Shown here: one piece after another, positions 7,344 through 32,401 of the stretch | Layout of the letters: every line of letters starts with the position of its first letter | Position numbering within the stretch: the stretch's first letter is position 1 | Position numbers and translations under genes: made by a program | The notes under the pieces: generated by a model | What the model saw: only the letters and a program-made list of their open reading frames with translations | What the model was told of the DNA's origin: nothing | Databases searched by the model: none | Assembly (NCBI GenBank): GCA_004431415.1 | Contig: QPMI01000022.1 | Span: 372,001 to 436,000 of the forward strand | DNA: 64,000 bases | Direction: 5' to 3' | From: Cyanophora paradoxa CCMP329 | Lineage: Eukaryota; Plantae; Glaucophyta

Positions 7344-8023
7344 CGCCGCGCCGTGCGGTGCAAACGCTTAAGCAGACACGCTACGTGCGGATCTCGACGG
7401 CTCCGCGACCTCGGCGAACGAGAACTTTCAAGCTTCGCTATGTTCGCTTTTCGGCGGGGGGGGGGTATGTCATCGTCGCCTTCGTTGGGGTACAGCCTAT
7501 CGACCCTGGTTGCGACTAGCCCCTCTAGCTATAGCTATAGATCTAGATCTGAGTCGACATCGCGTCCGCTGGTCGATGTCGACGTCGATGTCGGCGGCGC
7601 CTGCAGCTGGGCCGGACGTGCTGCAGCTGTCGCCCGCGCGCGGCCGCCGCGCCTCCGCCCCGCCCGCGAGCCGCGCCGCCGCCCGCCACGCCTCCGCCGG
7701 CCCGCCGCCCCGGCCAATTACGATGCACGCCATCATGGCATTTTATCCCATGTCCGGCCCGTCGCGACGCCAACCTCTCGCTTTCCTGCTCGTTTCAGAT
7801 TCGAATTCATTTGCAAGCTTAAGTCACTGACGTCGACGTAGCTCGCGATCGATCGCTATCCAATGAATTCGAATTCACTGGGCCAACGGTCTTCCAATCG
7901 ATATCTCGGCCCGGCGGCCTATAGCTGATATCGATCCCGCGGTCGACGTCGACGTCGTCGCTCGCGTCGCTCGCGCGTTTTCGATTCAAATTCGAATTCA
8001 ATTGCTATCATATTAATATTCGG

Positions 8024-11000: not shown

Positions 11001-12316
11001 CAAACTCAAATCCGAACCTTCATGAGGCAAATCGTTGTCTGCGCTTATGATGCGCATGTGGTTCTCGCCTGATTGATTTTGATCTCATTAAATTTACCGT
11101 GCCGGGCGGATAAATAGCCATAGCTTGGAGATTAAACAATTGCAGTATAATTATAATATACATTTCGCACCGAAGGCCCCCCAGTGGGCGTGCCTCGCGG
11201 CGAGGGCCCCGTTCCCCTCGAGGCTGCAGTCGAGGTCGTTCACGCAGGCGGGCAGCGCCAGCATGGCGCAGGCGTCGGCGTCGGCGGCCGAGGCGGGTGC
11301 GCCGGGGGCGTCCCGGACCACGCGGGGAACAGTGTGGACTGCGCGCGCATGCGCACGCACGCGCACGCAGCCCGTAAATTAAATTAAAGGATATATATGG
11401 CACGATAACGCTAGCCGGACTGCTCATATGCAAATGCGCGAAATTAAATCATTGAATTGAACTCACGGAAGAACTGGTCCATCTGTAGATAGATGAGAAC
11501 CGAGAGTCCGACGGTCTTCGATTTAGAGATACAATTGAATCGAAAGAAAACGTGAACGCGCACTGTATGTGGAGGGAACTCCCGCTCGTGCTCCATCTCC
11601 TTCGGGTACGCGTAGAGGCGGGGCGACGTGGTTTCGGATTTGCATCTAGTTTGAATTTCGAGCGCGTTAGACTCGAGTTTAAAATTAAGGCGCTTATTCA
11701 AATCATTGAAACCTAACGTTCACATTTGATTATATCATTCAACGAACCGGGAACTATTAAAGCACGTCCGGAAGGTGCAGCGGTGGAGGTCAGCCAGCTC
11801 GGAAGCGAATGCTTCGGCCGGGATGCTGTGGTTCAGGTATCGGGTCAGGTTCCCGAATAACCGCTCTCGCTCAGCTGTATCCTGCTGCTCGCGCTTGGCC
11901 TGCAGATCCCTGCAGCTCTCCACTGGGCTACGTGCACGTGAAGGAAGCTCTGGCTCCCTATAATTAGAAGCCGAAGCTGTGCTGGCCACGTTGGCGTCGA
12001 CGTCGCCCGCAGTTGGCCGCTCAATCTCCAGCGAAACAAATTCAGCCCCGCCGGCCGGCCTCGGCGCCGCTGCATGCGCAGCTGCTTCCGGCGCCGCTGC
12101 TGCCTCTAGCCGCAGGGGCCCGCGTGGCAAGCCGAAGTTGGCATCGAACGTCGACGCTTCAGATGCGTTAACGTTCTTTGATACCGCGGCCGGCGCCGAA
12201 GCTAACTTGCTGAAGCTTATTCTGAGGAGAGTGGCGAGAGCGAGCGCGGCGGCGGCTATGAAGACTGCTCTGCGCGACGGCCGCGGCCGCCGCCACTGGA
12301 CCTTGAGCTTCCACAT
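8024..12316 (-). CDS. Exostosin-family glycosyltransferase (GT47), type II membrane protein; multi-exon, 3' end approximate
   Basis: N-terminal signal anchor (AVFIAAAALALATLL), then CTFRTCFNSSR, FRPGFDISIPL, RKHLLVFKGTRY, NSTFGLVVPG, HSYRLVETLAAGSIPAVLVDDFVMPF and WEDCAVRAPE; these are EXT1-like motifs spread over short exons. Confidence 0.85.
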
Positions 12317-13276
12317 CGCCGAGTCGCGCGCGCTCTAGATCTGCGCTCCGGCTGCAACGCGCGGCTGCAACAAGTAACTGCCGCGAGCTCTCTCGACTGA
12401 TATCGATCGACGAGTATAACGTTAACGGCCACTGGAAATATTAATTCTCCTTCGAATTCCCCTCCGATCCGATCGCGATCCTCCTCCGGATCCGACTCCC
12501 TCCCTGTCCCCTCCGAATTCGATCCTGATTTTCAATTATTCCTCATCTAGATTTCCCCTCTAGATCTGAGGCCCCCTCTCCGGGCTTTGATTTACCTCGG
12601 CAAGGGCTGGTGCACGTGCGCTCTACGTACATACGTATACGTTGCGATCTTAATTACGCATGCGCGCAGCAGCTTATAATGATTATCTGGCCAAGTCTGG
12701 TGGATCGGAGGGCACCGCAGCTGGCATTATTTAGCCATGCATATATATGGCTGGTGAAATCGTGAACCGACTTTCAAGTTTGGAATCGTGGAATCGTGAA
12801 AGTTTGAAGCTTTTCGTGCCATTTTTTCCCGGCGCTTCATAGCGCTGTACTTGTGTTCTATTGAACTTCGAATTCCGTCATTTCGACAGCGCTGGAAACG
12901 GATCAACCGTATTCACTTCAAACGCTATAATATATGTTAAAAGCGCTACTACTAATAACTCTTCCGCATCCTCTTTTTCACATAAAACTGTAATAAGTTA
13001 GCGCGCTGCGGCCCGCGGCCCGCGGCGTGATGGACCTGATGGTGCGCAGCTTAAAGGATAACGAGACCGGGATGTCGACGGCGGCCTCGCGATCGCCGAG
13101 CACTAGTCGGATCCCCAGATCTATACTCTGGGGGCCTGGAGGCTGGGGCCCGTGATGTACCGGTACATTGTACAGTACAACGTTTTAACTTGTACAAGTC
13201 ACGAGTCGGCAATGCCAAATGAATGATCTGCACAAGGGTAGTATGAGTCGTCTGATCTAGAATCGCCGTACGGGTC

Positions 13277-13356
13277 TAGCCTGGCTGTCAGGGCCCTTGG
13301 TGTGCACCCCCCCCAGGAGCATTTGCTTCAATTCCCGGAGGGATTGTTGTATATGG
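13277..13356 (+). repeat. Left terminal inverted repeat
   Basis: TAGCCTGGCTGTCAGGGCCCTTGGTGTGCA-C8...TTCAATTCCCGGAGGGATTGTTGTATATGG aligns with the reverse complement of 32317-32401. Confidence 0.62.
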
Positions 13357-13867
13357 TCATGGTGCAAGGCAGGGGGCGGCGAGCGGGGCGCTCCTTGGTG
13401 GAACAAATACGTAGGCACATGCACCGGGCATGGCAGCGGCCAGGCAGGCAGTCCCTGGCAGCCGATCCTGGCATAGTGAACAGGAGCCGGGGCGCGGCGC
13501 CGGCGAGCTAGTAGCGTAAGAGGTCTTTGTATCATACATACAAGTGGTTCGTGTGGCCGGGCGGGCTGCGCGCGCGCTGCCCTGGACGCGCGCCCGTCGA
13601 GCGTGCGGGCGCCAGCTCGGGCACTCAGATGCATGCCGGCAGCGCTCAAACCTACCACGGATGCGATGCTAGGTCGCTGAAGATGCTGCGCGCGCCCGAC
13701 GCGGCCCAGCACTCGGTTTTGACGACAGCGTCAAGGGAGGGGGGTGCAGTGAATTTTTCGACCGCGGGAACAGCCGGCGGCAGACCGCCGGAGAGCCGCC
13801 CCAGCCGGCCAAAACAGCGATAGCCTAGTGCACGGAGCTGCGGGCGCTCATTGCGGTTCGCCTCGCA

Positions 13868-16061
13868 ATGAGCGGCTTCGAGATTTACATCGACCCGGAG
13901 ATTCTGGAGGAGTATGTGGCTCAGAAGAGAAAGGCGAGGGAGATCGTGGCTCTGCTGCACGAGGAGCACCAAATCCAGATTTCGATGCGCGCCCTGCGCT
14001 ACAAGCTCAGCGACCTCGACCTCTCGACGGACTACTCTCTCTCAAAGGAGGCAGTTTACGATGTCGTAGAAGAAGCGGCGACTTTGTGCGGCGACGGATA
14101 CGGCTACGACGCGATCCGCGGGGCGCTCAGGGCCGCGGGCATCACTGTGGCGAAGTCTAGGATTCAGCACGCCCTCGCGGAGCTGGATCCGACGGGACGC
14201 AACGTTCGCCTGGGCGAGTTCGCGAAAAAGCGCAGGTCCATCCACCGCTCGACCTTCTACGGGTCCGCGCCGCCACGCCGCCCGTGCCGCACCGCCGCGC
14301 CGCGCTGACGCACGCCTTGTGCGCAGGAAGTTCTTCGGCTGGAGTGTCGGTTTCGACCAGAACGAGAAGGCGGTGCCGTACACGAACGTCTACATCTTCG
14401 CGGCCGTGGAGAATACGTCCACATTCATCCTGGACTTGCATTGCGGGCTTGCTCGCTCCACTATACAAGGCTACAAACTGTACAAGTGCGCGCGAGGGCA
14501 CACGCCTCGCAGCTGCGTGCTCCGTGACCCCAGAGCTGCAGGTCGGTCGTGGAGGAGTTCGGGGTCTTCGACACGGTCTCCTCGGACTGCGGCGCAGAGA
14601 ACCGGCTGACCTGGACAGCCCACGTGTGCTCCCTCCCACTCCTCTTGCTCACCTGCGCCGCACCTGACCCCCGGGCGCGGCCACCGAAAGGCGCTCGTGC
14701 TGGAGGAAACCGAGCGGCTGATCGACGAGGAAATTGCGAAGGGCAACATCACGGACCCCACCACCGGCCTTCCCTGGCGGAGGCTCAACTTCGAAGATCC
14801 CAACGACCTGCGCGACGCCGTCATGGTGGGCCCATCCTACCGGAACCCGAAGGTCGAGAAGAATTGGAGGTGATGGACACGCCCTCTCCCCACGCATTCC
14901 TTCTGTATTTGCTCTCTCCGGTAACACTCCATGGGCAGGTGGGTGAATGTCAAGGTCACGAAGCCCATCGTGGATGCGGCTGTGATGCTGGAGATGCTCG
15001 AGTGGTACAACAGGTGCCCTTCGTGCGACCCGCCAGTCGATGACAGCTACAGACCATGATGGCCATCCCTATGTACATGTTGGAAGGCTACAATCAGTTA
15101 CTTCTGGCTGAGACTTGCCAAATTAAGAGCTCTTAATTTGCATGCGTGCATTCGAATTCACTTGGCATGCATGCTTATTATTCTCCGCTTGCATTCAGAC
15201 TCGACCCTCAACAGCTGTTTGCCATGGCGAAGGCGACCATGTACGTGATGGAGTACGGCCTCGCCATCGCGAAGAACAGCTGGAACCACCACGTGAATTC
15301 AGGCTCCAAGGAGACGGGGGGCAGAACGGCAGGCCAGACTGGTGGTATGCACTGCGGCACCTGTTCCCTGTTCTTTAAATTGTGCTGGTCCCAGCTCACT
15401 GGGCCCGGGTGCAGGCGCGAGAACATGAACTACATGCGGCCTCTGATGTTCAACCTGCCAGAGTGGACGGAAATGAAGGATATCCACAACCAGAGGGCGG
15501 CTCTGTCAACGGCTCGGTCCTTGACAGCCGCATGAAGGACCCGTTGAGCCCGACTTCGTCGTCTTTGACGAACCCCGCACGACTCTCCGGTGTGAAATTA
15601 CCTGCCCCGGGCACTCCCTTCATTGTTTATCAAGCTTCCTCACGCTCAGGATGCTGCGGGACGAGATGTTCAAGGAATGCAATGAGGACTTGAAGGAGAT
15701 CTGGAAGCATGTGGTCAACTTCGGGCGGGAGTATGATGAGGAAGCTCCGGGGGTACGTGGACGCATTGCGGAGCAGTACTCCAGCAACCCCCTTGGAGGG
15801 CTCCCCCGGCTCTTCTTGTTCATGCTGCAGCTGAACGAGCAGCTTTCCGACCTGCACCTGTACGATGTGTCCATCCCCGGCTGGATGCAGTGGGTGCACG
15901 ACGCACCCGCCAACAACGACGCGCCCCGTGCCCGGTCAATGCAGGGGATGGGCTTCTTCCCACCGGACGAGTACCTGCTGGAGCCCCAGGAAATGCGTGC
16001 AGCTTTCTTTTATTATGTGCACAATTTCGATCCCCTCGTGCGCGGCCCCCGGGCCCGCTAG
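13868..16061 (+). CDS. IS3EU-like DDE transposase/integrase with N-terminal Clr5/HTH-like domains; multi-exon
   Basis: HTH-like N-terminus (ISMRALRYKLSDLDL; GYDAIRGALRAAGITVAKSRIQHALAELDP). The integrase core has WSVGF-D-QNEK, VSS-D-CGAEN, GPSYRNPKV-E-KNWR and WNHH, matching the family pattern WHxDGxxK / RxDxGxEN / SxxNxxIERxWR / WNxH. Possible frameshift near 15500-15560. Confidence 0.85.
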
Positions 16062-16159
16062 GCTAGCCCTCTAGCGGCCCTCTAGCCCTAGCTTGATATA
16101 GCTAGCTCTGGCTATGTCTAATGAAACGCTCTCTCCTGCTCGCACTGGGCGGGAAAGGA

Positions 16160-19155
16160 AATGGAAACATCCACATACAGCAAAGTGACATTGACCTAGG
16201 CCTAGAGCTCGGGATGAACATCCAGAGACAGAACTACCTTCAAGCTTCACCTCGGCTGCAGCCAGCCTAGATGCGAGCAGCTCCCCGACAATACCTGCAG
16301 CTCGAGTGAGTTTCCAAATGCCTGCAGGTGCGGGGACGAGCGCAAGGACTCGATGGGCGCACGGGCTCAAGAAGAGGGGAAGCGCGGCCGATGCAGACGC
16401 GCTTGCGTGCGCGCTTTCGCCACGCAGCCGTGGCCCTTCCGCGACTCCGGCGATCGTAATGCTCCCGCCAGGCTTGCCGGAGCGCGCGCCGAAGCCGCAG
16501 CGGGACGCCACCTGCGGTATTGACGCCATCGTAAATGGCCCGTGCGGCGCCGCGGGCGGTGCACGGGCGCTGCGCCGGCGATGGGATCGCAGTCTGTGTG
16601 TGTACCGTAGGCGGATGCGAGCCTCGGGCGTGCCTATTCGCAGCCCGCCGCGAGGAACAGGTGTGTTGCCAACTGGCACGCCCGAGCGAGGCGGCGCGGG
16701 GCGGGGCTGGGCGGCGCCCAGGTCACTGGCGGCTCGCTCGCGCCGAGCTCGCTGCAGGAGCGCTCGGCGGGCTCCGGGATGGCTGAGTCCGGTGTACCCG
16801 GAGAATTGGGGTACACATCGAAAATGCGCACGCCGCGTCTGGCCTCGCCGGCGCAGCTCAACACACCCAAAAGGCGCGCCGTGAAAGCTATATAGCCGAG
16901 CGTAACCACTGGATCAAGTACCGTCACGCGGAAGCGATTGCTGACTGGGCAAACGGCGGCTTTGAAGGACCGAAGCCGCAGCCGCCGGCGCCACCGAGGA
17001 CCTCATAGCTAAGACAGCTGTTGAGGACAGCACCTGCAGACAGCTGTTCGCTGCGCAGCCGCCGACCAAGACGTCGACGCCAGCCAGCAGCCAGCGCCAG
17101 CCACCGCCATCAGCTGCAGCCCGCCTCAGAAAGCGACCGTTGACGTGCACGATTGCGCTCCGCACTCCCCCCTCGCCCCGTCGCCGGAGCCGATCGCCCT
17201 TAGTGCAACGGTCACTGCGACGTGCGTTGCCCGCGATCCGTCGCCATCCGCGCTGATGATACCTGTACAGGAATGAATCAGAGCTAACTGAAAACAAGGC
17301 TGAGGAGGCGGCGCCACCCGCGCCGGCTGCGTCGCCGGATGTGCCTGGCCGTGTGCCCGTGTTCCTGTTCTTCGTTCCAGTCGAGTGCGTGCTCTGCTGC
17401 TGCACAACAGTTGTACCAATCTCTTACAGTCGTGCGGCGCCCCTAGGGTCGATCCTGTGCCGCCCACGCCCGCTCCTGCTGAAGAAGTTCTCTGCCCCCC
17501 ACGGAGGAGGAGTTAGCCGAGATGGCGGCTATGGACTTGTCCGAGGGCGCTATACAGGAGCTGAGGTCTGCAGATGCTGCTGCATAGCAGATGTTTTTGC
17601 TGACAGTCGTGAACGTGCAGAGCACGTGCATCAATTTCGAAGGAGGACAAGGAGGCTGTTGATCTTCTGATCGGGATCAATGCAACCTGCTCAGTCTGTT
17701 TGAGCTCAGTCCAGGATCCTGAGAGAGGGCTCCCTGTGACGGTGGCCGACAGCGAGGGGAAGATCTGTTCCCACAAGTTCCATGAATCCTGCATCATGGA
17801 CCTGCTGAAGCACGGGAGGCCGTCCTGTCCTGAGTGGTACATACTAATCCCGCCCCCCCCCACCCACCCCCTGTGACAGTACCTTTCTGATCTCTTTACA
17901 GTCGCATGGATATCCGCACTGTGGCAAGGCTCAGCGGTGAGAGAGTGAAGACCATCTCCGAGGCTGAGTTCAAGGAGTGCAACCAGCACTTCCACGATGA
18001 CGTCGGCCTTCAGGCAACGGAGGCTTTAATCATTGCGGAGGCAGTAGATGCGGGCGCAGGTTCTCAGTCTCAAGCACCCCCTCTCCCCCTCCAGACTACC
18101 GCAGGCAGCCTGGACGGCGATGGACTTATCGTTGCCTCGTCTGCGGCGAAAACTTCCCCAACTACCACAGCCACCCTACTTGTGCTGCCACAACAAGGAA
18201 TCCATCTGCCAGCACGAGCCGGGCGGCTGCGGGCGGTCGGAAGAGGCGTGCATCAAGCGAAAGCACGTCAGGAGAGATGCATGAACGCCTACCACCCTGA
18301 ATGTGTGAACTTCGTGGTCGAGAATGGATTCAAAATGATGGAATATCTCTGTGTGTCCTTTGCATTACATTCGCGATTCAAGACCTCGCTAACGTTTTGT
18401 GTAGGCCTCGCCTGCTGCTGCCAGAAATGCCATTTGCCGGATCGGAGGATGATCCCTCTCTGAATGGCGAACTCCTCATCTGCGATGGGAGGGCGTGCGG
18501 CAGGGCGTGGCACGTCGAATGTGCTGGTTTTTCGGATGCCACCATACCCGAGGGCAAGTGGTACTGTGCGTGCCTCTGGATACTGGATGTTCATGCATCG
18601 CATTCCTAACACATGCCTTTTAGGCCTTGAGTGCTCGGAGTCAAGGAGAAGAAGAGGAGGAGGAAGGAGGAGCGGCGGCAAGCGATGCGGCGTGCAAAGG
18701 ATGAGCGGCGGCAAGCAACGCGGCGTGCACAGGAGGAGCAGGAGGAAGAGGAGGAGGAGAGGAGGAGGAAGAGGAGGAGGAGGAGCAGGAGGCGGAAGAG
18801 GAGGAGCAGGAGTCAGAGAACGAAGAGAACGAAGAGCAGCTGAAGCAGAAGGAGGCGTGGGAACAGCGGAAGCGGCTCACAGCAGCGCGCGTCAGCGCCG
18901 CCCCCACTGTCGGCACAAAGAGAGTGCGCGAGGCGAAACAACGCCAGGCGGCGGCCCTCGCGAAGATTGCCCAGCACAGGCAGCGCACTGTAGAACGTGC
19001 CGTAGCGAGCATGAGAAGATAATCGCAGGCTTTGTATGCATCTGTGCGCACAATGTAAATATTTTGATTCAGGGCTCAAGCTTGAGATCCTCGTCATCCG
19101 GGCAGGGTCACAAACTACAAGAGCTAGCTTGCGGATCCGTTCCTCCACTGCCTGA
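16160..19155 (+). CDS. RING-finger and PHD-finger protein with acidic coiled-coil tail (transposon cargo; frameshifted, boundaries approximate)
   Basis: CDGG...CSHKFHESCI...SCPE (RING-like, ~17735-17835); CMNAYHPECV; CQKC...LLICDGRACGRAWHVECAGFSDATIPEGKWYC (canonical PHD, ~18413-18570); E/R-rich tail. Confidence 0.72.
16207..16825 (+). repeat. Internal repeat A, copy 1 (~600 bp; inverted copy at 25525-26188)
   Basis: The same sequence and peptide (PKPQRDATCGIDAIVNGPCG...GWLSPVYPE) are found on the minus strand at 25525-26188. Confidence 0.92.
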
Positions 19156-21082
19156 TCCAGCACTCATTCGCACTTCCATCTGGTTTACTTGTGAGCAGCT
19201 GTGAGCGGAGAGCAGCCTGCACGTTGAGCTGGCTATCGCTACATGTGGGGAACATGAGCGTGTACACAGCAGCCCAGATCCACACACCGCACTGGAGCAA
19301 AGTGCATCAGGAAAGACAATACAGATACTCTAGAAAAGAACTCACATCGACGCAATTAAACTGAACAGCGTGGTCGTAGATGTTCCCCAGCACACTTACT
19401 CTATGGGAGTGGAGCATATCTGCAACCTTACCCAATGTTTTCGTCCAATTCATTGAATCGGCGAAGGTGCAGACAGTCTGACGTCCTTCTTTGCGGAGGT
19501 AGCCGAGAATCCTGTGTGTTGCATCAGACATCGATCTACGGAAGCAGTCTGCACGGCACACCAGTGTCCAACCTCACGCCCTGTGGGTGTCCTGTGATTT
19601 GTGTTGAAGCAAAAGAGCACATGCTTGCCCTGTCGAGCTAAGTCGACCAGCAGATGAATGTAGGCCGTGTTGTCGAGGAGGCCGAAGGGGCACGGGCTCT
19701 CCACATGCCACAGCGGGTTTCTCCATTGACTGCTGACAAGCATGAGAAGATAGATGCCTGAGGCACAGACACACACGGAAGAAGTCGGTCAAAACCATTG
19801 ATCTGAGACAGAACGAAGAACTGTACGTTTACCTGTCTGCACTTGAGAGGTAGTAAGTGGAATCTTGCCGTCTTCGGGGATCATCGCCAAGTCATCAATG
19901 ACATTCCGCACATACTCTCGTACTGGTTTCTTGGCGTCGCTGATCTTCATCGGCTTCAGTTCCTGACGACCTGGCATGGAACTGTCAGTCAATTGCCATC
20001 AACTGTGCATTCTGCAGCATACCCGGCTTCTGGTCGGAAGCTATGCATTCCTCCCCTTCATCCCATTCATTCCTATCGGTTGTGGCCGGTGTAGGATTTT
20101 CGATCTCGACGTCGACCACAGGAATCGACATGCCCACAGAGCGTAGAGCTGCTGCTCGGGCAGGCCTAATCCTCCGAGAAAGGGGCGAGACGGCGACGGC
20201 AGGGCGGGCGGGGACGGGGAGGTGGAGGCAGGAGGGGTGGCAGGAGGGGCTGGGGGAGGAACGGAAGGAGGCGCGGGGGAGGGGCGAAGGGAGAGGCGGA
20301 GGGAGGGCAAAGGAGAGGCGGGGGAGGGCAAAGGGAGAGGCGGGGAGGAGGTGCGGCAAAGGGAGGAGGAGCGGGGGGGGAAACAACCCCATCTGCCGCG
20401 GCATCTGCCGCGGGGGGGGCTGCAGCGGGAGGGACAGCAACGAGCGCTGCGGCCAGGCGCAGCGGCGGATCCTTCTTGAAGGCGTCGGCAGCGAGCCGGA
20501 CCAGGAAATCTCTCAGCGTCTCGCGTGGTGCGTCCTTGTACACGTGCATGTAAACGGCTTGCACTTGCGCGAGCATTTGCACGCATGTGTGCATATGCGT
20601 GATCACAGGAGGCCCGCATACTCCGTTTTCCCCATAATACACCGATTCCGAGATAGCACACCTGCAGGCAGAGTCAGCAAACACCGCGCACGAGTTACCG
20701 CGGCGGGGCGCACGCGCGGCCAGCGATAGCCCCGATCCAAAGGAGGATCCTGCAGATCTCGCAGACGTGAACGACACGCTTCGAGCTATCTGTGTAAAGC
20801 TGGGTGTTGCGCTTGACTTGCTGCCCCGTCAAGGGATCGTACACCTGCTTGCTGAACGTGTCCTTCACGCCGAGGATCATGCATGTCTGCTCCAGGTGCC
20901 GCACGCCGACGGGCAATCCTGTATCGGGATCCAGATCGTAAAAGCCGTTGGCTAGCCCCCAGCTCGGTGGCCGCCGGCATCCGGGGCAGCACGATTCCTG
21001 CGCGCGGCCTTTCCGCGCCCGGCTCGCTTGTCTGTGCGTCTGTACGCGGCCTCCGCTTCCGTTCCTCGGCCGGCGCTGACAT
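19070..21082 (-). CDS. Ulp1/SENP-like (C48) cysteine protease (transposon cargo; frameshifted)
   Basis: Catalytic motifs occur in order: FNTN...GHW (~19565), FADSM (~19460), and QFNCVD|CGVWI spliced across a GT-AG intron (~19345/19291). Confidence 0.72.
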
Positions 21083-21332
21083 GTCTGCCGTGCCGAAGGC
21101 CGCCTATGTGTATGACGGCTGCCCAAATGGGCGTCAGCGCGGGAATTCCGAAGATTGCGCGGGGCGTGCGGCGTGATTTAGCACAAGAGGGCTAGCACCG
21201 CGGTAGGAGCTGAGCAGAAGCCTTGCCGTTGAGCTCAGAGCAGGAGAACGGGACGGCGGGTGCTCCGGCAGGGGTACCGGTACCGAAGCCCCAGCGCTGG
21301 GATCTCGAGCTGGTGGGCAGTTCCGAAGCAAA

Positions 21333-22038
21333 ATGTATAGGCAGCTGCGTCGTCTCGCTTCGGCCGGAGGTACTGAACTGGTATGTGCGCTGAGTGCGCT
21401 GCGCCGCCAGTGGGTCGCCTGTGCGCTAACTGCCAGGCTGCACTCGCTGCCGGCAGGTAACGGCAAGGACGCGTGGTGTGAGCGTGCGCTCGTTCGACTG
21501 CCGCTCGTGCCGCCAGTATCGCTGCGAGTAAAGTTTGCCGCAGACCCGCGGCGAGGCCGTCTGCCGCGCACCACCGCTGCCATCGGCATCGATCGCCGCG
21601 CGGGCTGGCTTCTGCCGAAGCAGTCGGGCATCTGGCGCGCCGGGACCGGCCTCTTCGTGGAGCGGCCGGGCGTGCGCCGTGGTGCAGTTGTTTTCAGACC
21701 AGGTGACCTCATCACCCCGTACCGCGGGACGATCTACACGAAGACTCAAGCGCTGGAGATTTTCGCTCGCGAGCCCTCGCGTCGCCTCTACAGCATCTCG
21801 TTCAAAGGCAAGTACGGGCACACGTACGTCCTCGACGCCACCGACTTTCGGAGGCGAGCCTAGCGCGCTTCGCAAATGACGCGGATAAGCCCGGGACTCA
21901 CCCCGCTTCTCGAACAACGCCTTCTTCCGCGTGGAGAAGGACGGGCAGGTCTGGCTAGTCGCCGACTGCGTCCTCAAGCAGGGGATGGAGATCTTCGTCC
22001 CGTACGGGCAGCTGTACTGGAGCGTGCTGGCTCGCTAG
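21333..22038 (+). CDS. Minimal SET-domain lysine methyltransferase (two frameshifts: pseudogene or assembly errors)
   Basis: SGIWRAGTGLF, GDLITPYRG, YVLDA, then after shifts SLARFAND, NNAFF and GMEIFVPYGQLYW*: the full set of SET motifs. Confidence 0.8.
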
Positions 22039-22303
22039 CTCTCTTCTCGTATCTCACGCGCTATCCTGGCGTTGTAGACCTCCTTTTCTCTCTTTTCCGG
22101 TTCTGTTTCTTCTCCCATCCAAATGAACCCAGTCTCTCTCATGCCAGCAGCTAGCTCTGGGATGGCAGACTGGCCTGCGGCTGCGCACGCGCCAACGCGA
22201 CACCGCATGCACTGTGCGTCGAAGCGGGATGCGATGGCAAAAGAAAGAGCGCGGCTCTTGATGGGATGGGAAGAAATGTGACGCGAGTGAGCGCGCGACG
22301 TGT

Positions 22304-23593
22304 CGCGGCAACCGCGGCATTTTGAGTCTATCCGCGGCAACTCCGCGGCAGTTACGTGAGAATTAATTAACCACGAAATTAAAAAAGGGGGTAGTCCAAA
22401 TGACGCGGCATCTTCGCGGCATTCCGCGCTACTAACAAATTCTGCGGCAATTACCGGTAGATGTCGTTAAATCCGGCAGTTGGCGACAGAACGCGGCATC
22501 CAAGGCGTCGTCGCGCTGCTTTCGCGGCTCTCGCCCGAGAATTAATTAACCACGAAATTAAAAAGTGGGGTAGTGTGATTGACGCGGTGTTTCCGCGGCA
22601 CTCCGCGCTACTAGCGGCAATTACTGCCACACGTCGTCAAATTCGGTAGTTAGCGTCAAAATGCGGCATCCGCGATGGAATCGCGTTTTCTACGCGACGG
22701 TTTCCCAAGAATTAATTAACCACGAAATAAAAAAGGGGGTAGTCCAAATAACGCGGCAACTTCGCGGCAGTTTTCCCTAACCGCGGCATGATTTGACAAT
22801 CGCGGTACATTGCGGTTGTTCGCGGCAAATACGAATCGCGGCGTCAATTCTGGCTTGCCATCTGGCGCGGATCGTGAGCTTCATGATCATGAGGCGCGTT
22901 TTCTCCCGCGTCATGATGCCTGCATGTCCAGAGGTACTCTATAAATATTTTAATCATGTTTAGGAGGAGGCGGGATTGTGCATGCAGACCACAGACACAT
23001 GTGTCGAACAGAAAAGTACAGGATGAACTGTCAGACTGACAATTCATGAATTGCCATAAAGCACTGAAGCTAGGGTGGTCTGTGGAAAAAGCGCACACGT
23101 TCTAAGCATGATTAAAATACTTATATAGTTCCTCTGAACATGCCTGCATCATGATGCGGAGGAAACGCGCGTCATGATCATGAAGCTCATGATCTGCGCC
23201 TCATCGGGACATACGAAGCGACGCCGCGGTTCTGTAGAGCCGCAAAATGCCGACAAACCTCGCGAGAACCGCTAATTGCCGCTAGTAGCGCGGAGTGCCG
23301 CGGAAACACCGCGTCAATCACACTACCCCCACTTTTTAATTTCGTGGTTAATTAATTCTCGGGCGAGAGCCGCGAAAGCAGCGCGACGACGCCTTGGATG
23401 CCGCGTTCTGTCGCCAACTGCCGGATTTAACGACATCTACCGGTAATTGCCGCAGAATTTGTTAGTAGCGCGGAATGCCGCGAAGATGCCGCGTCATTTG
23501 GACTACCCCCTTTTTTAATTTCGTGGTTAATTAATTCTCACGTAACTGCCGCGGAGTTGCCGCGGATAGACTCAAAATGCCGCGGTTGCCGCG
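22304..23593. repeat. 1.3-kb nested palindrome: outer arms 22304-22623/23273-23593, inner arms 22864-22965/23100-23200
   Basis: Outer arms are reverse complements, with one indel noticed in ~320 bp. Five copies of (G/A)AGAATTAATTAACCACGAAAT(T/A)AAAAA..GGGGTAGT occur at 22358, 22537, 22707 and reversed at ~23323 and ~23502. Inner arms are ~100 bp and imperfect. Confidence 0.95.
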
Positions 23594-23673
23594 GATGACG
23601 CGGATTGTCGCGAACGTTCAAAGAACGCGTTCTGCCGCGGAATGCCGCTCGGGGGTTCACACTACCCAAGACG

Positions 23674-24804
23674 ATGGCGGGAGCGTCGGTGGACAGCAGC
23701 ACGCAAGTGGAGCGGCCTTGCTGCAACGAGAAAGTCATGACGATCGTCGAGCACAGTCTGAATGTGCGTTGCCTTTGTGGTCCGCGCGACGGTAGCGGCG
23801 CCACCAGCTATCTGATGAACTTCGGAATTCCCACAGCACCTCAACGAGAGGCTTGCCGATAAGCAAGCGGAGGTGGACACTTTGCACCGAAGGTGGCCGA
23901 GATGGAGGCCAGGGAGAGAGCGAACGAATTCGTCGGACCGCAGATTCTGGGACTGACAAAGGTGCGCGTGCGATGCGCATGCGGCGCTCAGCATGCCTCA
24001 GCTCTGCGGCAGGACGTATGCGACAGGTACCGCGAGGTGAAAGAGGAGCTGAGCAAGTCTCAGAAGGCGCTGGCCGATGCGAACGCCCGAATCCGTGAGG
24101 TCGATCTGGGACTGACAAAGGTGCGCGTGCGATGCGCATGCGGCCGCTCAGCATGCCTCAGCTCTGCGGCAGGACGTATGCGACAGTACCGCGAGGTGAA
24201 AGAGGAGCTGAGCAAGTCTGAGAAGGCGCGGGCCGATGCGAACGCCCGAATCCGTGAGGTCGAGGAGGCGAGCTCGATCTTCGCAGTACGATGCTCGGAG
24301 CTCGCAGTGCGATGCCACGTGCCTTAGTTCTGCTCGCAGATCCTTGGCAAGAGGATGCGCGACGAATTGGAGTGCGGGTGCGCACGAAGGACAGTGCGTG
24401 GTCATTCCATTTGCTGCGCCTAGACGTGCCGCGCCTTTGCTGATAAATGTGCCCGATGCAGATCTCAAGGACATCATGGCCTACAGAGCGGGTTGCGACT
24501 ACATCGGTGTGATGCTGGATGCACGCCCTTAATGAGATCTTTGTAGGGCTTCAACTCCGAGAGATCCCCTCAGGCTTCATTGTTTTTCTGTTCAGATGCT
24601 TTTAAGTCCATATTGATTGCCTTTCTTGCCCGCGGCCCTGTGGCTTGTGCAGCGTGTCAAAGGAGCAAAAGTAGCTGCTTAAAGAATAATTGTACACAAA
24701 TGAAAGGGCACAAGCAAGGAACGTGCAAAGTGAAGGATGCGAAGGGCACATGCACACGAGTCACCTACTCCATCATTGACCTGTACATATCTATAGGTCT
24801 GTAG
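23674..24804 (+). CDS. Hypothetical cargo protein X: coiled-coil plus Cys-rich C-terminus, with duplicated exon
   Basis: MAGASVDSST...; an exon/intron unit is duplicated in tandem (~23947-24106 / ~24106-24263); DLKDIMAYRAGCDYIGVMLD; CAACQRSKSSC...HKQGTC. Confidence 0.5.
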
Positions 24805-24849
24805 ATTTTCTCGGGCTGGTCGGGACCGAGGGTCCAGCCGTAGGCAAAT

Positions 24850-25500
24850 GCGAAGTACCTGTGAGCAAGCAGCGCCTCAGCGGAACAGCGGAACGCATTG
24901 CAGCGGCGCGGACCCGTTGTATCGGGGGCGCGCGGGCGTAGTTGACGAAGCGATCGCGGAGCTCCTTCCGGCCCTGCACAGCTGGGTTGTAGGCACGGCA
25001 TGTGTGACCTGCACACCGCGGCAAGGCACGCGTGAGCCAGATTGGATAGACTGGGGATATACTAGTGCAGCATGGCAGATCGCACTCTATCTTCATGGCG
25101 CGGCGCTGGCGACGCGCTGAATCCATGACTCCGACGCTTTGATTCCTCGCTCGCGGAGGATCGCGCGGATCCCGCGGACCTCGCGCCACACCGGATCGAA
25201 CACCGCGAGGGCCTTCCGAATCCTCGACTTCGACGCTGTGATGCTTGGGCGCGGAGGGCCGTGCGGATCATGCCGCCGCCGAAAAGGGGCCATTTAAGTT
25301 AACAACTCCAGCACGGCGACACAAAGGACATTGAAAGAGAGAGCGTAGTTCGTTGAGAGGCCAAGCTCGCGGAGCCTGGAGCGCAGAGCGCGCTGTTGAG
25401 GTTGATGCCGTGCTGCTCGCTAGCAGAGTCAGTATCTCAGCGGCCGTCTTCCTCTGGTCCACGTAGCCGCGCAGAGTCTCCTCCTCGATGCTGCTTGGCT
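24850..25500 (-). pseudogene. Degenerate paralogue of the transposase N-terminal HTH region
   Basis: IEEETLRGYVDQRKTAAEILTLL, MIRTALRAQ-SITASKSRIRKALAVFDP and IRAILRERGIKASESWIQR align to transposase IDPEILEEYVAQKRKAREIVALL and AIRGALRAAGITVAKSRIQHALAELDP. Frameshifted; no DDE core seen. Confidence 0.72.
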
Positions 25501-25524
25501 GGGCCGGGCTCGCGCCACCGCGGC

Positions 25525-26188
25525 CATTTCGCTGCGTACCCAACACCTCCGGGTACACCGGACTCAGCCATCCCGGAGCCCGCGAGCGCTCCTGCAGCGA
25601 GCTCGGCGCGAGCGAGCCGCCAGTGACCTGGCGCCGCCCAGCCCATCCGCGCCGCCTCGCTCGGGCGTGCCAGTTGGCAACACCACCTGTTCCTCGCGGC
25701 GGGCTGCGAATAGGCACGCCCGAGGCTCGCATCCGCCTACGGTACGCACACAGACTGCGATCCCATCGCCGGCGCAGCGCCCGTGCACCGCCCGCGGCGC
25801 CGCACGGGCCATTTACGATGGCGTCAATACCGCAGGTGGCGTCCCGCTGCGGCTTCGGCACGCCCTCCGGCAAGCCTGACGGGAGCATTACGATCACCGG
25901 AGTCGCGGAAGGGCCCACGGCTGCGTGGCGAAAGCGCGCACCGTGGCACGCAAGCGCGTCTGCATCGGCCGCGCTTCCCCCTCTTCTTGAGCCCCGTGCG
26001 CCCCATCGAGTCCTTGCGCTCGTCCCCGCAGTTGCAGCTAGGCATATGGACACTCACGCGAGCTGCAGCTAGGCATATGGCTATAGCTAGGCAGTCTCTG
26101 GTCAAGGTAGTTCTTTCTCTGGAGCTGCTCGCATCTCGGCTAGCTGCAGTCTCTGGTCAAGGTAGTTCTTTCTCTGGATGTTCACGAG
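25525..26188 (-). repeat. Internal repeat A, copy 2 (inverted)
   Basis: Reverse complement matches 16207-16825 with scattered substitutions and indels. Confidence 0.92.
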
Positions 26189-26294
26189 TACAGAGTACAG
26201 AGATGATTGCACACCCTCAACCCCGGACGCGTGTTACGAAAGGACAAGAAAGCATTGCACTGAAGAAACATGCTAGGGTTTAGCATCTGGATTG

Positions 26295-29000
26295 TTAGTG
26301 TCTAAGACCCGCTGTTCTTGCTTTTTTGACTATGGCGAGGCCACCATTGCCGTTGCTTTCGACTATTGCTGACCACACCTGTATTCCTTCCTTGTTGAAG
26401 GCTTTTTTCTCTTTCCACATCCTGGTCGACATGTCGAGCTTGAGTGGAATCGTGTTGCGCCCGTTCTCCAGAACCCGCTTCAAATGACTGCATGCCTCTG
26501 CTTCTCCTCCAACTTGCACACGCCTGCTGGAATCTGGAAATGAACGTCCACAACGTTCTTCCTTCCGGCCTGGTCTACAACCCGAATTTCAGGCAGCGGG
26601 ATCTCATCGGTCTCGCTGCGATTTCGATCATTCACGTGTAAAAGAACACACAATTGAAGGAAGGGCTACACGCACGTGATTCGTCTTTTCTTCCTTCCTG
26701 TGCTCTTCTCCTTGGGGCCCTTGCTGCTGCCCCCGCCTTCGATCGCTTCGATTCTGAAGAAAGTTAGGATACAGACGGGAGTCTTTCGGTTCACACGTGC
26801 CATCATCGGCCTCGACGCCGTCAGGAGCCACATCCTCGTCCTCGTCCTCGTCCTCCTCTTCCCCCCCCCTCCTCCTCCTTCTGAAGATCCACAGGGGGGG
26901 TGGAGGTATAGCAGCAGGCGGGGCAGGAGCAGGGCAGGAGCGGGAAGGGCCCCGCCCTGCTCCAGCCAACGCTTTGTCCGCCATGGCATTGAGAAGGAGG
27001 GCCCGCTCCTCTGGAGTGCGGCGACGAGCCTCCTCTTCCTCCTCCTCCTCCTCATCTGCTGACCCGTGAGCTGCAGCCGGACCTGACGGAATTTAGTACG
27101 CGCAAGCACAAACGTGCCCTGGCTCGTCCGATGCATTCTCCTGCTCTCCAGCCCGGCAATTGCCTTCTGTGAGCCGTGATCAGGATGCGGGCAGGAGAGT
27201 GAAGGGAAGGACACAAACCACGCTGTCGATGTTGTGGGAGGTTTTGAGATTCTCCATAAAGAGAGCACGCAATTTAGTCTCGGATTTGAACTGTTGATTC
27301 ACCAGGAATACGATGAACGGTTTAGCTTCGGCCAGAGAAATCGGCTGTTTCTCAACCACGTGCTTGCTCATGAGACTCTCCATATCGTTCATCTTATCGT
27401 CAGGAAACACAACGTCCCCGGCTTCCCGCTTGCACATCTCGGCACACGAAAGCCTGCAGATACGAGTCAGCGGAGCGCAGACGGGGTTCACCATCAGAAT
27501 GCTCACAGATCTGCGGCGAGGGACAAGGAAGCCTTCGTCCTCTGCTGGCACATTTCGTGGCTTTCTCGGCGACGAACTTCGTCGCGCTCCCCAGCAAGAG
27601 CTTGGTTTTTTGGTTGCCAGGAAGAGTTTCCGCTGGCCCACGGTCTTCTGGATCCACTGCAAGTTGAGTTGGTCTGTGTGCTGCTCGATTTTGTTCAGCA
27701 GTGAACATGCCGCGCGCGCCTGTCTGCGCGGGCCGAACCTGCTGCGGGGTTCGCTTTGGCTTGGACGTGGCGCCGATGCCCCGCCCGCGCTGCCTGTGGT
27801 GCAGCTGCTCCGCCGACTTCGCCTGCTCCGCGAGCAGCTTCGGCACATCGCAGGGTTGGTGCTGATGAAGTAGTATAGATTTCCCTGCCGGATGTGCTTG
27901 TCGAATATCTGCGCGCATTCAGAAGCAGGCGAGCATCGACGGCGGCGAACTGCCGACCTGCTGGTTGGGCACCCAGTGGCCAGCGCCGCAGAGCACCACG
28001 TAGAGTTTGAGCAAGGGCCGTGCGAATCGGGAACGTCGAAGATCGCCGCCACTTCGCGATGAAAGCATCTAGTTTCGCCGGTGCCAGTGACACGGTGTTC
28101 TCGCCGTGCTTCGATATATCCTTCACGGCTGTTACGATGAGGTCGGGAGCTGCTCACCCGGCTGCTCAAACTGCGCGGCCGCGACAGCCGCCACGGGCGG
28201 CGCAGGAGCACCGGCGGCCGCAGCCGGGAGCATGGTAACGACGCGTACCCCTGGCTTGACGACGCCGTCAAACCCATGGACTCGCGCAACCCGGCACCTG
28301 CCGCGGCCGGCGTCTTTGAGTCCGGGCCGCTTCGCGGCAAGGAGTTCACTTTCCGGCGGCCTGCAGCAGCCCCCGAGCCGGCGTCCGCTGCGGGCGCCGC
28401 TCCTCCGAACGCGAGCTCATCGCCGACCTCCAGCGGCAGCTGGAGGCGCTCACGGTGGAGGTGCGCACGATAAAGACGGAAGTCGAGGAAGGTACGCGGC
28501 CGCCGTCGCCCGTGGCGCGTCCTCGTTTTGAACCGCCATCCGCGCCGAGCTAGGTCAGCGCCCTGCGCCCCCGCAGCCCGCCGCGCGCAAGCTCGGCGCA
28601 ACGCATCTCCTCCTCCACCGAACGAGAAGTACACCGGAGTCCGTCGACGGGCAAGATCCACAAGGTCTCCAAGGTCTCGGGCCAGAACCCGACGTGCCCG
28701 GCCCTCCGCGTGCGTACAGCTCGCGTGCCCCGGCTTTGAGGCACTCAGTAGCTAAAGGCGGTGCGCGCAGATGAAGGGAAGATCCTCTGGCCCGAGTTCA
28801 GCTCGGAGGAGGCGCTCCGGGCCTCGGACCCAAGTACAACAAGGAGGGCGCTCGCTGCCGCAACTGCTGGCGCTAGGCGCTAGCCGTGCGGGGTCGCTCC
28901 CTCCGCGGCGCTTCCTGTTCCGCGTGAAGCTCTGTGAACGTGTCGCTGAGTCGTGCTCTGAACACGAGATGTTGTTGTCAACTTGGAAGGGAACCTTGAA
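26295..29000 (-). CDS. Hypothetical cargo protein Y (multi-exon, frameshifted, unknown function; boundaries approximate)
   Basis: Protein-like segments ECAQIFDKHIRQGNLYYFISTNP, LLNKIEQHTDQLNLQWIQK, MESLMSKHVVEKQPISLAEAKPFIVFLV and HLKRVLENGRNTIPLKLDM...LRH*. Confidence 0.45.
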
Positions 29001-29282
29001 GGGATGCATGCATGGCCAGGCACGCAGAGAGGAGAGCGCAGGCACACATACGAAATCAATCCAGATTGCACACAAATACATACACAGCGATAAACAGCCG
29101 ACATAGATACATACACAGCGATAGACAGCACATTACTATAGATAGCAAACACATGGATACATATATAGAGTTGCGAGCCCAGCGGGAGAGCTCGGAATGG
29201 ACATGAAGGAAAATAAAATCCTACCAAGAGCACAGGCTATCTGCAGCTACTGCTGTGCAGAGCTAGCAGCTACTTCAGAGCA

Positions 29283-32200
29283 ACTACTGCTGCCCCTTCT
29301 CCTGCTGCGCCTTCTCCTTTGCGGCCTCCAGGTCGAGCCCGCCGCTGGCGAGGACGGCGTAGTTCATCGTGCGGGCACGCTTGCGCGAACCCTCCGCCGC
29401 CGGACGGGAGCTCGAGGCGGCCGGGGTGTCGAGAGGGAGGGGATCGGAAGAGGAGGAGCCGAGCTTGGGTCAGGGAGGGGCGGGGCCGCAGGGAGGGCCT
29501 GGGCTGCTGCCTCCTTCTCCGTCTTGGACCGCCGGCCCCGCTTCGGAGGCGCCGGCGTTTTCTCCACGTGTTCCACGTCCTCCACGGGCCCGTCCTCCTC
29601 CTCGCAGTGGCAGAAGTCCTTGGACCCCTGCCGGCACACGCCGAAGCAGGGCCCTGGTAGCACTTGTAGCCGAGCCAGTCGCAGACGAAGACGTGCTTGC
29701 TGGTCCTGCTGAACTTCTCCACAATTTCGTCGTGCTCCGGGTTGCCGATGCGCTTGTAGCCGCAAACACTGCAAGGATGGACGAGGAAAGCAGACTTCCC
29801 TGCTCCAGAAGCATGAGACAGGGGACGGCGAGGGCAGAAACGGGCGTACCGTTGCGGGCATCCTTCATCGCGTCCTCGAGCTTGTCCTCCGGGACGACGT
29901 ACGGCCGCAGCTCCAGGTTCACGAGCTCCCGATGGGCATCCTCGATGCGGAGCTGCTGCAAGAGTCAGGCAGTCCCTGCAAGGGTTGGGTTGGAGCCTGA
30001 GCTGTCACAGACCGAGAGCGGCGAGTCATGCCGTCCCGCAGCTTGAGGACGTCGGTGGGGCACATCTTGTGGAACATGGCGGCGTGGCACATTGCAATGC
30101 CGTTGACATACGACTGCAGGAGGGCGCCGCCCGACGTGGATTGACCAGCCGCTCCGGGTCCTTGCGGTTGAGGGAGTATTTCTGCTCAGCACCAGAGTGA
30201 GATTCGGTGGACAGAGGGGAACTAAGCAGGAAGGGCAGTCTGAGAACCTTTTCGGGCGTAGTCATCGTCCGCAGGATGGCATGCTGCGACCCCGCTCGAA
30301 GTACATCGATGTGAGCACCACACCGATGTAGTTGCAGTTCGCCTCGTAGGCCATCACCTCGGTGAGCTCTGCACGGGGCACATGCATCAGAGAAGGGCGC
30401 GGTGCATCGGGTGCCAGGAGAGCACAACGCACTGGACACTGGGAAGTTGTCAGGGGTGATTTCATTCACGGCGTCCTGGAAGTTGTTGGGCCGCCGGCCC
30501 GCGCCCTTCGGCGGCTTGTTGGGGACGAACATCTTGTACACTTCCAGGGCTCCTCAGCGTTCAGCTTCTTCGTCATGAACGCTGAGAATGCATCTGCAGA
30601 TAGAAGAGCAGGTGCTAAGGTTAGACTGAAGAGGGACCTTTACAGAAAGGAGCACAAGCCAAGAAAGGAGAAAGGAGCACAGACCAGCGAGCTGCGTGTA
30701 GGGGTGCGGATCAAGCATGCCTTCGATCTCGATTGTGATGGTCGTTGGATCCTTCCCGGACGTCCCGAGCTTGAAGACGACGTTGTACCGGGGCTCCTGG
30801 AAGTCGGCCACACCACGGCTCCGGCGGGCGGCCAATTCAGCCTTCTTGTTTACGAACTGCTCGAAAGCAAGCGGTCAGTGTGCTCTAGAGGCCAGAGAAG
30901 AGGAATCAAAGGCATGCACGCACGTCCCTGACAATCTTGGCGGTGGTTCGCCCATGAAGATGATGTGCTGGCCAGTCGGTTTGGCCAAGTGCTTGTTCAC
31001 GAAGAGGTTCCAGTCCTGCATGCTGACAGGGTCCTGCGGGTGTTCAAAAAGCATGCAGTGAGCACAGAGAAAGAAGGAAAAAAGGAAGAGGTGGGATGGG
31101 GAAGAAGAGGACGCAATGCATGCTGCTAGGCGGCTAACCTGCATGACCCACATCTTCTCGATGTTGTCCAGGGGACGACATGCATCTTCTTCGCGGGTTG
31201 CTCGGATCCACGATCTCGGTGATGACAGCCGTGGCAACAGTCAGCGTGTTCCCCACTCCGGCTGGTTCGCGCTGCGGTTCGTGATGTTCCGCGCCATCTC
31301 GAAGCCCTTCGGGTCGAAGTAGTTCACGAAAATCTCCTCGCTCAGGATGTGTACTGCGACGAAGACGCGCGATCAGGTTCGAAAGGAAGACCCGCGCAAT
31401 CACGGAAGCAACGAGCCGAGGATCGCGACGCACTCGGTGCGGAACTCTTCCCGAGGATCGCGAGCATGTCGTGGAGAGGCTTCCAGGCCGCGTCCGCGGC
31501 CGGGCGTAGGTCGCGAATGAGAAGGGCGTAGGCTTGACTGCCTCGATTCCCTTTCCGCTCTTCACCGCGGCACCCGCCGCAGCCATGACCTTCTCTTTCT
31601 GAGTGACCGCGGCCGCGGCGGCCTTGGCCTTCGCATTCGTCGTCACCTGGGCGCGAGGGCCACCTTGCCGAGGGGTCGAACCCCTCCGGCTGCGCGTATA
31701 GCGTGAGGAGGATCGCATGGCGACGCGAGGATGCGGGCGCACGATCGTGGGCCCGCCCGAGCCTGTGCGCGTGGCGCCAAAATTTGAATGTCAGTTGGGC
31801 GCCAAAATTTGAATCGACATGGCGGCGATTGCGAGCGCACCGCGCCCCGAGCTCGCGACCGCGTCCGCAAGGCCCTGACTGGAGCGGCCGCTAAACCGGA
31901 CCCCGAAGGTGGCCGCCCGTTGGGCGGGCTCGGCCGGCGCGGCGACCTCGGCTGGTCGTCTGCGCGCCGAGCGGTTAGCGCGGGCGGCGGTTAGCGTGAG
32001 CACGCGCACCCATTGCCGTGTAGTAGACGCCCTGCTTGCCCGTCTTCCAGCCCGAGGTGGAGCACAGGAGGCTGATGTCTTCGAGCTCCTCCGACGTGCC
32101 GTCGTGGCGCTTCTCGAGCACGAATTCCATGTTCTCGGCGTCCAGATTCTGAAACACAGTCGTCTTGAGCAGCCGCAGGACAACGTCAACGGGCGGCGTT

Positions 32201-32320
32201 GAGCATGTCCGGCTTGAAATGCACAGGCGGCGCATCCGGGCTGCCCTTCCTGTGGATCACGACACGTTCGATTTCTCCCGCGGGCACGGAGCCCGCCGCG
32301 GGTGCCGCCGGTGCCGCCAT
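29283..32320 (-). CDS. Hypothetical cargo protein Z with C-terminal CW-like zinc finger (multi-exon, frameshifted)
   Basis: ATG 32320 lies inside the right TIR. Exons include VMAYEANCNYIGVVLTSMYFE and CSVCGYKRIG...VFVCDWLGYKCYQGPC (CxxC..R...FxC...C spacing like zf-CW), followed by KRGRRSK. Confidence 0.5.
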
Positions 32321-32401
32321 GTTCAAAAATTTGCCGCCGAGTTTGAATTGACGTATACCGGGGGGGGGGGGTTGCACACGTTAGTCCCTGATACCTGGCT
32401 A
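32317..32401 (-). repeat. Right terminal inverted repeat
   Basis: Reverse complement reads TAGCCAGGTATCAGGGACTAACGTGTGCAA-poly(C)...TTCAAACTCGGCGGCAAATTTTTGAACATGG. The inner ATG (32320) starts the last cargo gene. Confidence 0.62.

Follow-up and report, generated by a model that had tools for sequence, protein, structure and literature searches.

A 19.1-kb nine-gene DNA transposon in the glaucophyte Cyanophora paradoxa, likely moved by an IS3EU/GingerRoot-type transposase

A 19,108-bp element lies at positions 13,286-32,393 of the 64,000-nucleotide stretch analysed here, contig QPMI01000022.1 of Cyanophora paradoxa CCMP329 (hereafter the window, whose numbering is used throughout). It is likely one copy of a multi-copy DNA transposon of this alga, in which an IS3EU/GingerRoot-type transposase (G1) moves a unit of nine genes and the eight passengers (G2 to G9) serve the expression or control of the element. 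Its ends, the target-site duplication, other insertion sites, the linked cargo, splicing and an intact catalytic triad are directly established. An earlier note on this DNA had proposed a giant DNA transposon, laden with cargo and equipped with an IS3EU-type transposase, and the 6-bp duplication at independently defined ends, the near-identical copies and the linkage of their cargo bear this proposal out. Single-copy syntenic cargo, ends that do not recur or closer termini around the transposase, which that note had named as counter-evidence, were not encountered.

Where does the element begin and end? Public short-read contigs and gene models from other contigs stood in for genome-wide copies. 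Over 12,200-13,282 the depth of the flank contig is 69, 97, 44 and 106 in four DNA runs, and at 13,283-13,286 it jumps in all four, to 823, 1,020, 266-476 and 1,055 respectively; in each of them the flank contig continues into the left end. At least three foreign left flanks meet the element in total: one contig joins before 13,283 in 4/4 runs, and before 13,286 one joins in run X1 and two in each of the other three. On the right side, one foreign contig in X1 and two in X9 (2/2 DNA runs) join behind 32,394. Because of these join positions, the ends are placed at 13,286, where the element starts with TG (also present in the short-read contigs), and at 32,393, where it finishes with TA. Directly outside both ends stands the 6-bp duplication CCTGGC (chance about 4e-4). 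The terminal inverted repeats are 29 bp long and imperfect, with 22/29 positions identical between the ends, and none of up to 200,000 random 29-mers of the window scores as high. The boundaries proposed earlier, 13,277 and 32,401, were thus 8-9 bp too far out, and the TAGCC...GGCTA taken for repeat termini lies outside the element, being made of the duplication and a near-symmetric target; imperfect terminal repeats do exist, at 29 bp and not at the 40-80 bp then suggested.

Interior contigs have 4.3-6.7 times the flank depth (2/2 runs), with sub-blocks varying within that range, and gene models place further copies on other contigs. Transposase exon 1, used as a query, found three C. paradoxa EukProt proteins, 100% identical over its length (3 of 2,565 candidates); transposase models carry six accessions, and G7 models lie on six contigs and G9 models on four other contigs. 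In these models the cargo is linked: on tig00001049 the transposase (g6676), G7 (g6672) and G9 (g6670) are numbered in element order, tig00000912 and tig00020921 each have G7 and G9 two gene numbers apart, six gene numbers separate the G7 model of tig00000215 from the second accession of P0002, and P0019 (tig00020553) joins the transposase C-terminus to G2. Ten comparisons of the models give 1-6 differences in 324-713 aligned residues, so the family is very probably young. P0003 and P0008 carry the frameshifts of the window and therefore probably represent this locus, not independent copies. C. paradoxa is reported as likely haploid (PMC6704402). Short-read contigs lose rare variants, and the exact identity of copies is beyond their resolution.

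Several observations accompany this picture of the family. The left arm (13,286-13,850) reaches about 10-12 times the flank depth in three runs, compared with 4-7 times for the interior, and model P0001 (tig00000743) fuses exon 1 to right-end sequence on another contig; because of both, internally deleted derivatives of the element probably exist. A 25-bp GC-rich stretch at 16,690-16,714, with a summed depth of 7,600-9,000 and many loose ends, is probably shared with a high-copy host repeat. Compared with the short-read contigs, the element in the window has many 1-bp deletions that break reading frames, for instance 6 in the transposase contig and 38+9 in the 6.3-kb right contig, and these look like long-read errors left unpolished in repeats. 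A transposase fragment of 44% identity, P0018 (tig00001343_g8330), suggests that this genome has a second, diverged family, and two unnamed Logan/ENA proteins that match parts of the transposase, P0023 at 60-66% and P0021 at about 40% identity, indicate related elements beyond this family. Related loci were found neither in viral contigs nor in metagenome contigs (0/26 pattern matches in the latter).

The transposase gene G1 passes the cut-off of the Pfam family rva_4 (27-29 bits against 26), and its N-terminal helical, Clr5-like region scores just under the Pfam Clr5 cut-off. The catalytic triad is intact (D142, D200 and E268 in P0003 numbering) and aligned with that of relatives. Four GT..AG joints occur in 2/2 RNA-type runs and in 0/2 DNA runs, the RNA nature of the former, which come from two studies, being read from a guessed label and from the intron-type joints and not from the record; together with the rva_4 match they confirm the intron-containing DDE integrase that had been noticed at the left end. 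A structure model built on a 14-row alignment shows an RNase H core and matches retroviral integrases, MuA and TnsB (14 matches at E<=0.001, E from 2e-4); the sequence itself has no match in the Protein Data Bank (PDB). Nineteen representative relatives were found at E<=0.001, and 10 of the 16 that were scanned pass the rva_4 cut-off. The named ones come from nematodes and a fish, and the nearest, at 22-33% identity, are rva_4 proteins that lack a name or a classification.

The description of IS3EU and GingerRoot in PMC10045372, in the part accessible, defines their DDE core and the position of its first D; in G1 the core is integrase-like, lacks HHCC and has its first D 100-300 aa from the N-terminus. 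The CCTGGC duplication of this copy has the 6 bp expected of both groups. Each end fits one of the two known forms, the pair being TG..TA here, TA..TA in IS3EU and TG..CA in GingerRoot, and the 29-bp repeats at 22/29 depart from the 100-150 bp of a strict GingerRoot definition. Because of the rva_4-type relatives and the 6-bp duplication, G1 is most likely of the IS3EU/GingerRoot type, as a divergent branch of that lineage judged from its sequence. In view of the mixed TG...TA ends and the short repeats, strict membership under either name is not established.

The passengers are eight genes, four of them orphans (G5, G7, G8 and G9), where about seven cargo genes had been counted before; a truncated second transposase had gone unlisted. 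Modelled genes cover about 76% of the element. RNA-type contigs show 15 listed joints and 40 more, and 11 of the 15 listed have canonical ends (four in G1, one in G4, three in G5, one in G6 and two in G7), none of which occurs in two DNA runs. The coordinates of all features are given in Table 1.

Table 1. Features of the C. paradoxa element, in window coordinates, with the basis of each assignment
Feature	Position	Strand	Basis or remark
Left target-site duplication CCTGGC	13280..13285	none	Outside the element; identical to 32,394-32,399
Left terminal inverted repeat, starts TG	13286..13314	+	Depth step, foreign flanks, match to right end
G1, DDE transposase, ~540 aa	13868..16061	+	Pfam rva_4, triad, fold, four joints
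540-bp repeat, copy 1	16292..16823	+	92.7% to copy 2, indels included
G2, RING + PHD + acidic/coiled-coil tail	16779..19022	+	Pfam; start inferred
G3, likely Ulp1-family (clan CE) protease	19124..21082	-	Motif order only
G4, likely SET-domain methyltransferase, SETD8-like	21150..22038	+	Weak matches; start approximate
Central non-coding nested palindrome	22304..23593	none	109 bp from element midpoint
G5, coiled-coil orphan with 159-bp tandem duplication	23674..24532	+	Three GT..AG joints; duplication 97.5%
G6, truncated transposase paralogue	24765..25571	-	49% over 107 aa to G1
540-bp repeat, copy 2 (inverted)	25527..26071	-	92.7% to copy 1
G7, orphan, ~500 aa, acidic middle	26295..28233	-	Two CT..AC joints
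G8, small orphan, short coiled coil, terminal cysteines	28276..28876	+	Start approximate
G9, 762-aa orphan (P0012), convergent with transposase	29284..32320	-	Models on four other contigs
Right terminal inverted repeat, ends TA	32365..32393	-	Interior contigs stop at 32,371
Right target-site duplication CCTGGC	32394..32399	none	Outside the element

Both domains of G2, the RING at 17,685-17,831 (E 9e-7) and the PHD at 18,463-18,570 (E 3e-7), exceed their Pfam cut-offs, as the RING/PHD gene first noticed here would have it. In G3, the putative triad is spread across two introns, the first of them inferred (His 19,566-19,564, Asp 19,459-19,457, Cys 19,291-19,289), and a piece of an RNA contig ends at the predicted acceptor 19,291; the His-Asp-Cys order and its context follow what we take to be the Ulp1 family pattern, and on this motif order the earlier Ulp1 call is likely but unconfirmed. 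All 11 PDB matches of G4 at E<=10 are to SETD8/KMT5A, weakly (E 0.8-1.5), which goes part of the way towards the SET gene proposed before. The gene has a GT..AG joint at 21,379-21,456, and motifs that are presumably those of SET domains are visible across the assembly frameshifts.

The truncated paralogue G6 keeps the N-terminal DNA-binding region (Clr5 E about 1e-3) and the first core strand and then reaches a stop, without the second D and the E; this stop is shared by models P0010, P0011, P0015 and P0016, and a CT..AC joint lies at 24,856-24,912. A 20-aa motif is common to the last exon of G5 and to G9 (11/20 identical to residues 460-479 of P0012, E 4e-7 for the pair). The query exon of G7 is 100% identical in models on six contigs, and G7 has no family match in Pfam, NCBIfam or PHROGs and draws a blank in the protein atlas. 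G8, in which RNA-type contigs skip two intron-sized gaps (2/2 runs), has no family match in profile scans of open reading frames (ORFs) or gene models. As for G9, Pfam, NCBIfam, PHROGs and the PDB gave no match, no HECT match was obtained at E<=1 in 4/4 models, and a single-sequence structure model (predicted local distance difference test, pLDDT, 35) returned nothing meaningful with Foldseek or VIA-align. A TBP-like lead from its nearest atlas clusters (0.77) had no Pfam or PDB backing and was set aside. Residues 17-94 of P0012 (about 32,270-32,030) follow a strand-strand-helix-strand-strand-strand order in a low-confidence model (pLDDT about 50), an order that we presume to resemble a ubiquitin-type fold. 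The CW-like gene of the earlier note found no match; the Cys-rich region beneath it, at about 29,600-29,800, belongs to G9.

Two repeat structures lie between the genes. An inverted pair, previously put at 600 bp, is present at 92.7% identity with a length of about 540 bp, and because of its position in front of G2 and G6 it is likely a duplicated promoter and start region of these genes. The other structure, in the middle of the element, had been described as a 1.3-kb palindrome; a block of that size exists, made of two nested stems with an unpaired stretch on the left. Its outer arms are 321 bp long and 99.7% identical, and its inner arms (22,801-22,992 and 23,075-23,262) match at 145/185. 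Five exact 20-bp AT-rich units are present, at 22,360, 22,539 and 22,709 on the plus strand and at 23,339 and 23,518 on the minus strand, and CGCGGC/GCGGCA hexamers reach 6-10 times their density elsewhere in the element. The palindrome has no flanking direct repeat, its arms have about twice the interior depth, that is about two arms per element, and on these two grounds an independent miniature inverted-repeat transposable element was rejected. Rfam gave no match. At the inner apex (23,023-23,047) we observed an 11-bp hairpin; its six innermost pairs consist of the left terminal hexamer of the element, which faces its own reverse across one base. Of the 17 occurrences of this hexamer in the window, 13 fall within the element. 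Both are post hoc observations.

The CpG observed/expected ratio is 1.57 in the palindrome; outside it the element has 1.01, and the host has 1.17-1.19. TpG is 1.13 in the element against 0.75-0.81 (p=0.019, 9 vs 21 windows). C. paradoxa is reported to methylate most repeats at CpG (PMC12344493). A methylation history that spared the palindrome could give this pattern, and codon use or a recent expansion of repeats could do so too. RNA-type contigs leave 22,238-23,571 without cover in 2/2 runs, which is a weak hint only.

How might such an element work? We consider it very probable that the transposase binds the ends through its N-terminal helical domain, that joining occurs with a 6-bp stagger, that deleted derivatives are moved in trans and that the family is young. 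The transposase would grip both ends by that domain and join them to target DNA by integrase-type insertion, after excision or through a circle of the kind described for IS3 (PMC2909936), and deleted derivatives that keep both ends would be mobilised along with it. On the other parts of the model our confidence is lower. G6, as a paralogue with DNA-binding capacity only, may restrain transposition by competing at the ends, a possibility that we rate as close to even. In bacterial IS3 elements, OrfA has a regulatory role. A more tentative proposal, drawn by analogy, is that the RING-PHD, SET-like and Ulp1-like proteins modify chromatin or ubiquitin-like marks at copies of the element and so keep the family transcribed. 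The setting would be the host CpG methylation of most repeats: a DNA-binding protein encoded by the element would dock the cargo at the repeat units of the CpG-rich palindrome, and the docked cargo would keep the family active, as VANC is described to do for VANDALs (PMC5735166, PMC13317346). The full version, a self-governing giant transposon with its own reader-ligase (RING-PHD), writer (SET) and eraser (Ulp1), a methylation-protected palindrome bound by an orphan protein and an OrfA-like brake derived from its transposase by duplication and truncation, is a scheme that we regard as unlikely in its entirety.

Some points weigh against a mobile nine-gene unit of the kind proposed here. No empty-site joint exists among the short-read contigs of 4/4 runs, so that movement is deduced from the copies. 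The duplication is read directly for this copy alone; a second one, CTCAGG, is compatible with a blended two-contig consensus under an inferred tie rule (chance about 0.035), and the flanks listed include no left-hand counterpart to the right flank of X1. Contig depth is a rough measure and not a copy number, and RNA-type reads are not assignable to this particular copy. Complete IS3EU families are described as always TA..TA (PMC10045372), and the left end here is TG. On the cargo side, G3 finds nothing relevant in Pfam or the PDB (separate exons searched), G4 finds no Pfam match on its frameshifted pieces, and the orphans leave four passengers without an assigned function. Finally, the CpG shift is small and may reflect codon use.

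The most serious alternative leaves the transposon real and makes its passengers neutral baggage, that is, captured host pieces together with remnants of an old inverted duplication or nested insertions, among them G6, the 540-bp pair, the G5/G9 motif and the foldback middle. This we judge to be improbable, if by no means negligible. The paralogous pairs G1/G6 and G5/G9 are indeed inverted, as is the 540-bp pair, and the sub-block depths do differ (4.3-6.7x). There are also precedents: GingerRoot is reported to capture host gene fragments (PMC6839031), and giant elements of algae commonly contain nested insertions that have become fixed (PMC12477816). On the other side, modelled genes take up some three quarters of the element, and most of them are spliced. 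Searches with G7 and G9 exons, directed at longer proteins only and with G2-G6 and G8 outside their scope, gave 100%-identical copies and no host donor (2/9 and 4/40 candidates). G6 is 51% diverged from G1 and yet is spliced and has the same stop in four models, and the palindrome has neither a duplication of its own nor an abundance above about two arms per element.

An integrated Polinton-like virus (PLV) or other DNA virus, with the integrase for insertion, the clan-CE protease for capsid maturation and G7 or G9 as diverged proteins of the capsid or of replication, seems very improbable to us. Size, 6-bp duplication and integrase do fit descriptions of PLVs, which occur in Cyanophora (PMC12220804), and the atlas clusters nearest to G9 belong to giant viruses, at a score often exceeded by shuffled proteins. 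Against this, the terminal repeats are 29 bp long and not hundreds of bp as in Polinton/Maverick elements or PLVs (PMC12220804), the genes contain spliceosomal introns, and the integrase is of the rva_4 type. Neither the gene models nor any of the 206/206 ORFs that reach 62 aa yielded a polymerase B, packaging ATPase or capsid family, no Walker A motif is present, and the sole polymerase-like tetrapeptide follows a stop codon; the virus-like alternative raised in the earlier note thus lacks any hallmark gene among those ORFs and models. G7 and G9 give no confident fold, which leaves this reading a small probability. That the block arose by segmental duplication, or is an artefact of the assembly, and that its ends match by chance, is harder still to credit. 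It would account for the many 1-bp deletions, and no contig among those listed spans the whole block. Against it, short-read contigs as long as 6.3 kb trace the window with 0-3 differing letters, in 4/4 runs the flank contig enters the left end, at each end a single base is the meeting point of different flanks, and the duplication and the inverted ends coincide with the boundaries of flanks and depth.

Outside the element, a host gene for a DEAH helicase like DHX37 lies at 60,250-61,550; it is followed by a 196-bp tandem repeat (61,675-62,262), another copy of which is at 58,856.

The element extends the IS3EU type to glaucophytes and beyond the 3.9-13.4 kb of the sizes published in the sources accessible to us. 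It also means that several "host" gene models of the Cyanophora proteome are transposon genes, and it offers a family that is young, spliced and low in copy number, in an alga that can be cultured, is likely haploid and has a published CpG methylome. If the self-governing scheme were true, it would amount to anti-silencing of the VANDAL type in a glaucophyte and in the IS3EU lineage. No published description of this element was found in the literature searched, which did not take in Repbase and most subscription journals. The earlier remark that no such architecture had been described was too strong: red-algal Plavaka already include giant cargo transposons that have SET genes and inverted-repeat arrays (10.1101/2025.02.11.637652), IS3EU elements with cargo reach 13.4 kb (PMC12730594), and algae have giant multi-gene elements that belong to other superfamilies (PMC12477816).

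Among known systems, compared here through the accessible parts of their reports, IS3EU and GingerRoot elements share with the Cyanophora element an integrase-like DDE core without HHCC, a GC-rich 6-bp duplication and ends starting with TA or TG (PMC10045372, PMC6839031). GingerRoot differs in its size (3.9-12.9 kb, PMC6839031, against 19.1 kb), its 100-150-bp repeats and its cargo, which consists of gene fragments and not of eight whole passenger genes; the Cyanophora element is set apart from both groups by its mixed TG...TA ends, an insertion between the second D and the E, and its glaucophyte host. The IS3EU elements of rust fungi and truffle that carry TET/JBP and alpha-kinase genes (PMC12730594) and Styx (7.9 kb, four genes; PMC10853768) likewise have fixed passengers, some of them chromatin-related, and a 6-bp duplication. 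The former have three genes and other cargo, within the 5.6-13.4 kb of all 27 IS3EU rows of Table S1 of PMC12730594, and in the accessible text on the fungal elements and Styx no SET, Ulp1, RING-PHD, second transposase or central palindrome was found.

Bacterial IS3-family OrfA resembles G6 in being a second protein with the DNA-binding part of the transposase and without the catalytic domain; OrfA arises by frameshifting from the same gene, whereas G6 is a separate, diverged and inverted gene (PMC2909936). The VANDAL/Kaonashi Mutator-like elements of Arabidopsis, which belong to another superfamily, also have Ulp1-domain cargo and dense short non-coding motifs (PMC5735166, PMC13317346). For VANDAL, binding and demethylation are known by experiment, whereas in Cyanophora they are a proposal, and no VANC-like family was detected among the genes of the element. 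The red-algal giant Plavaka elements (EnSpm) share the size range (17.4-19.1 kb), a SET accessory gene, an algal host and inverted-repeat arrays, the latter proposed as self-binding sites (10.1101/2025.02.11.637652). They have a transposase of another superfamily and three accessory genes (methylase-SET, ParB-oxygenase and one unknown), and they are reported as mostly degenerate and weakly transcribed, whereas the copies in Cyanophora are near-identical and spliced.

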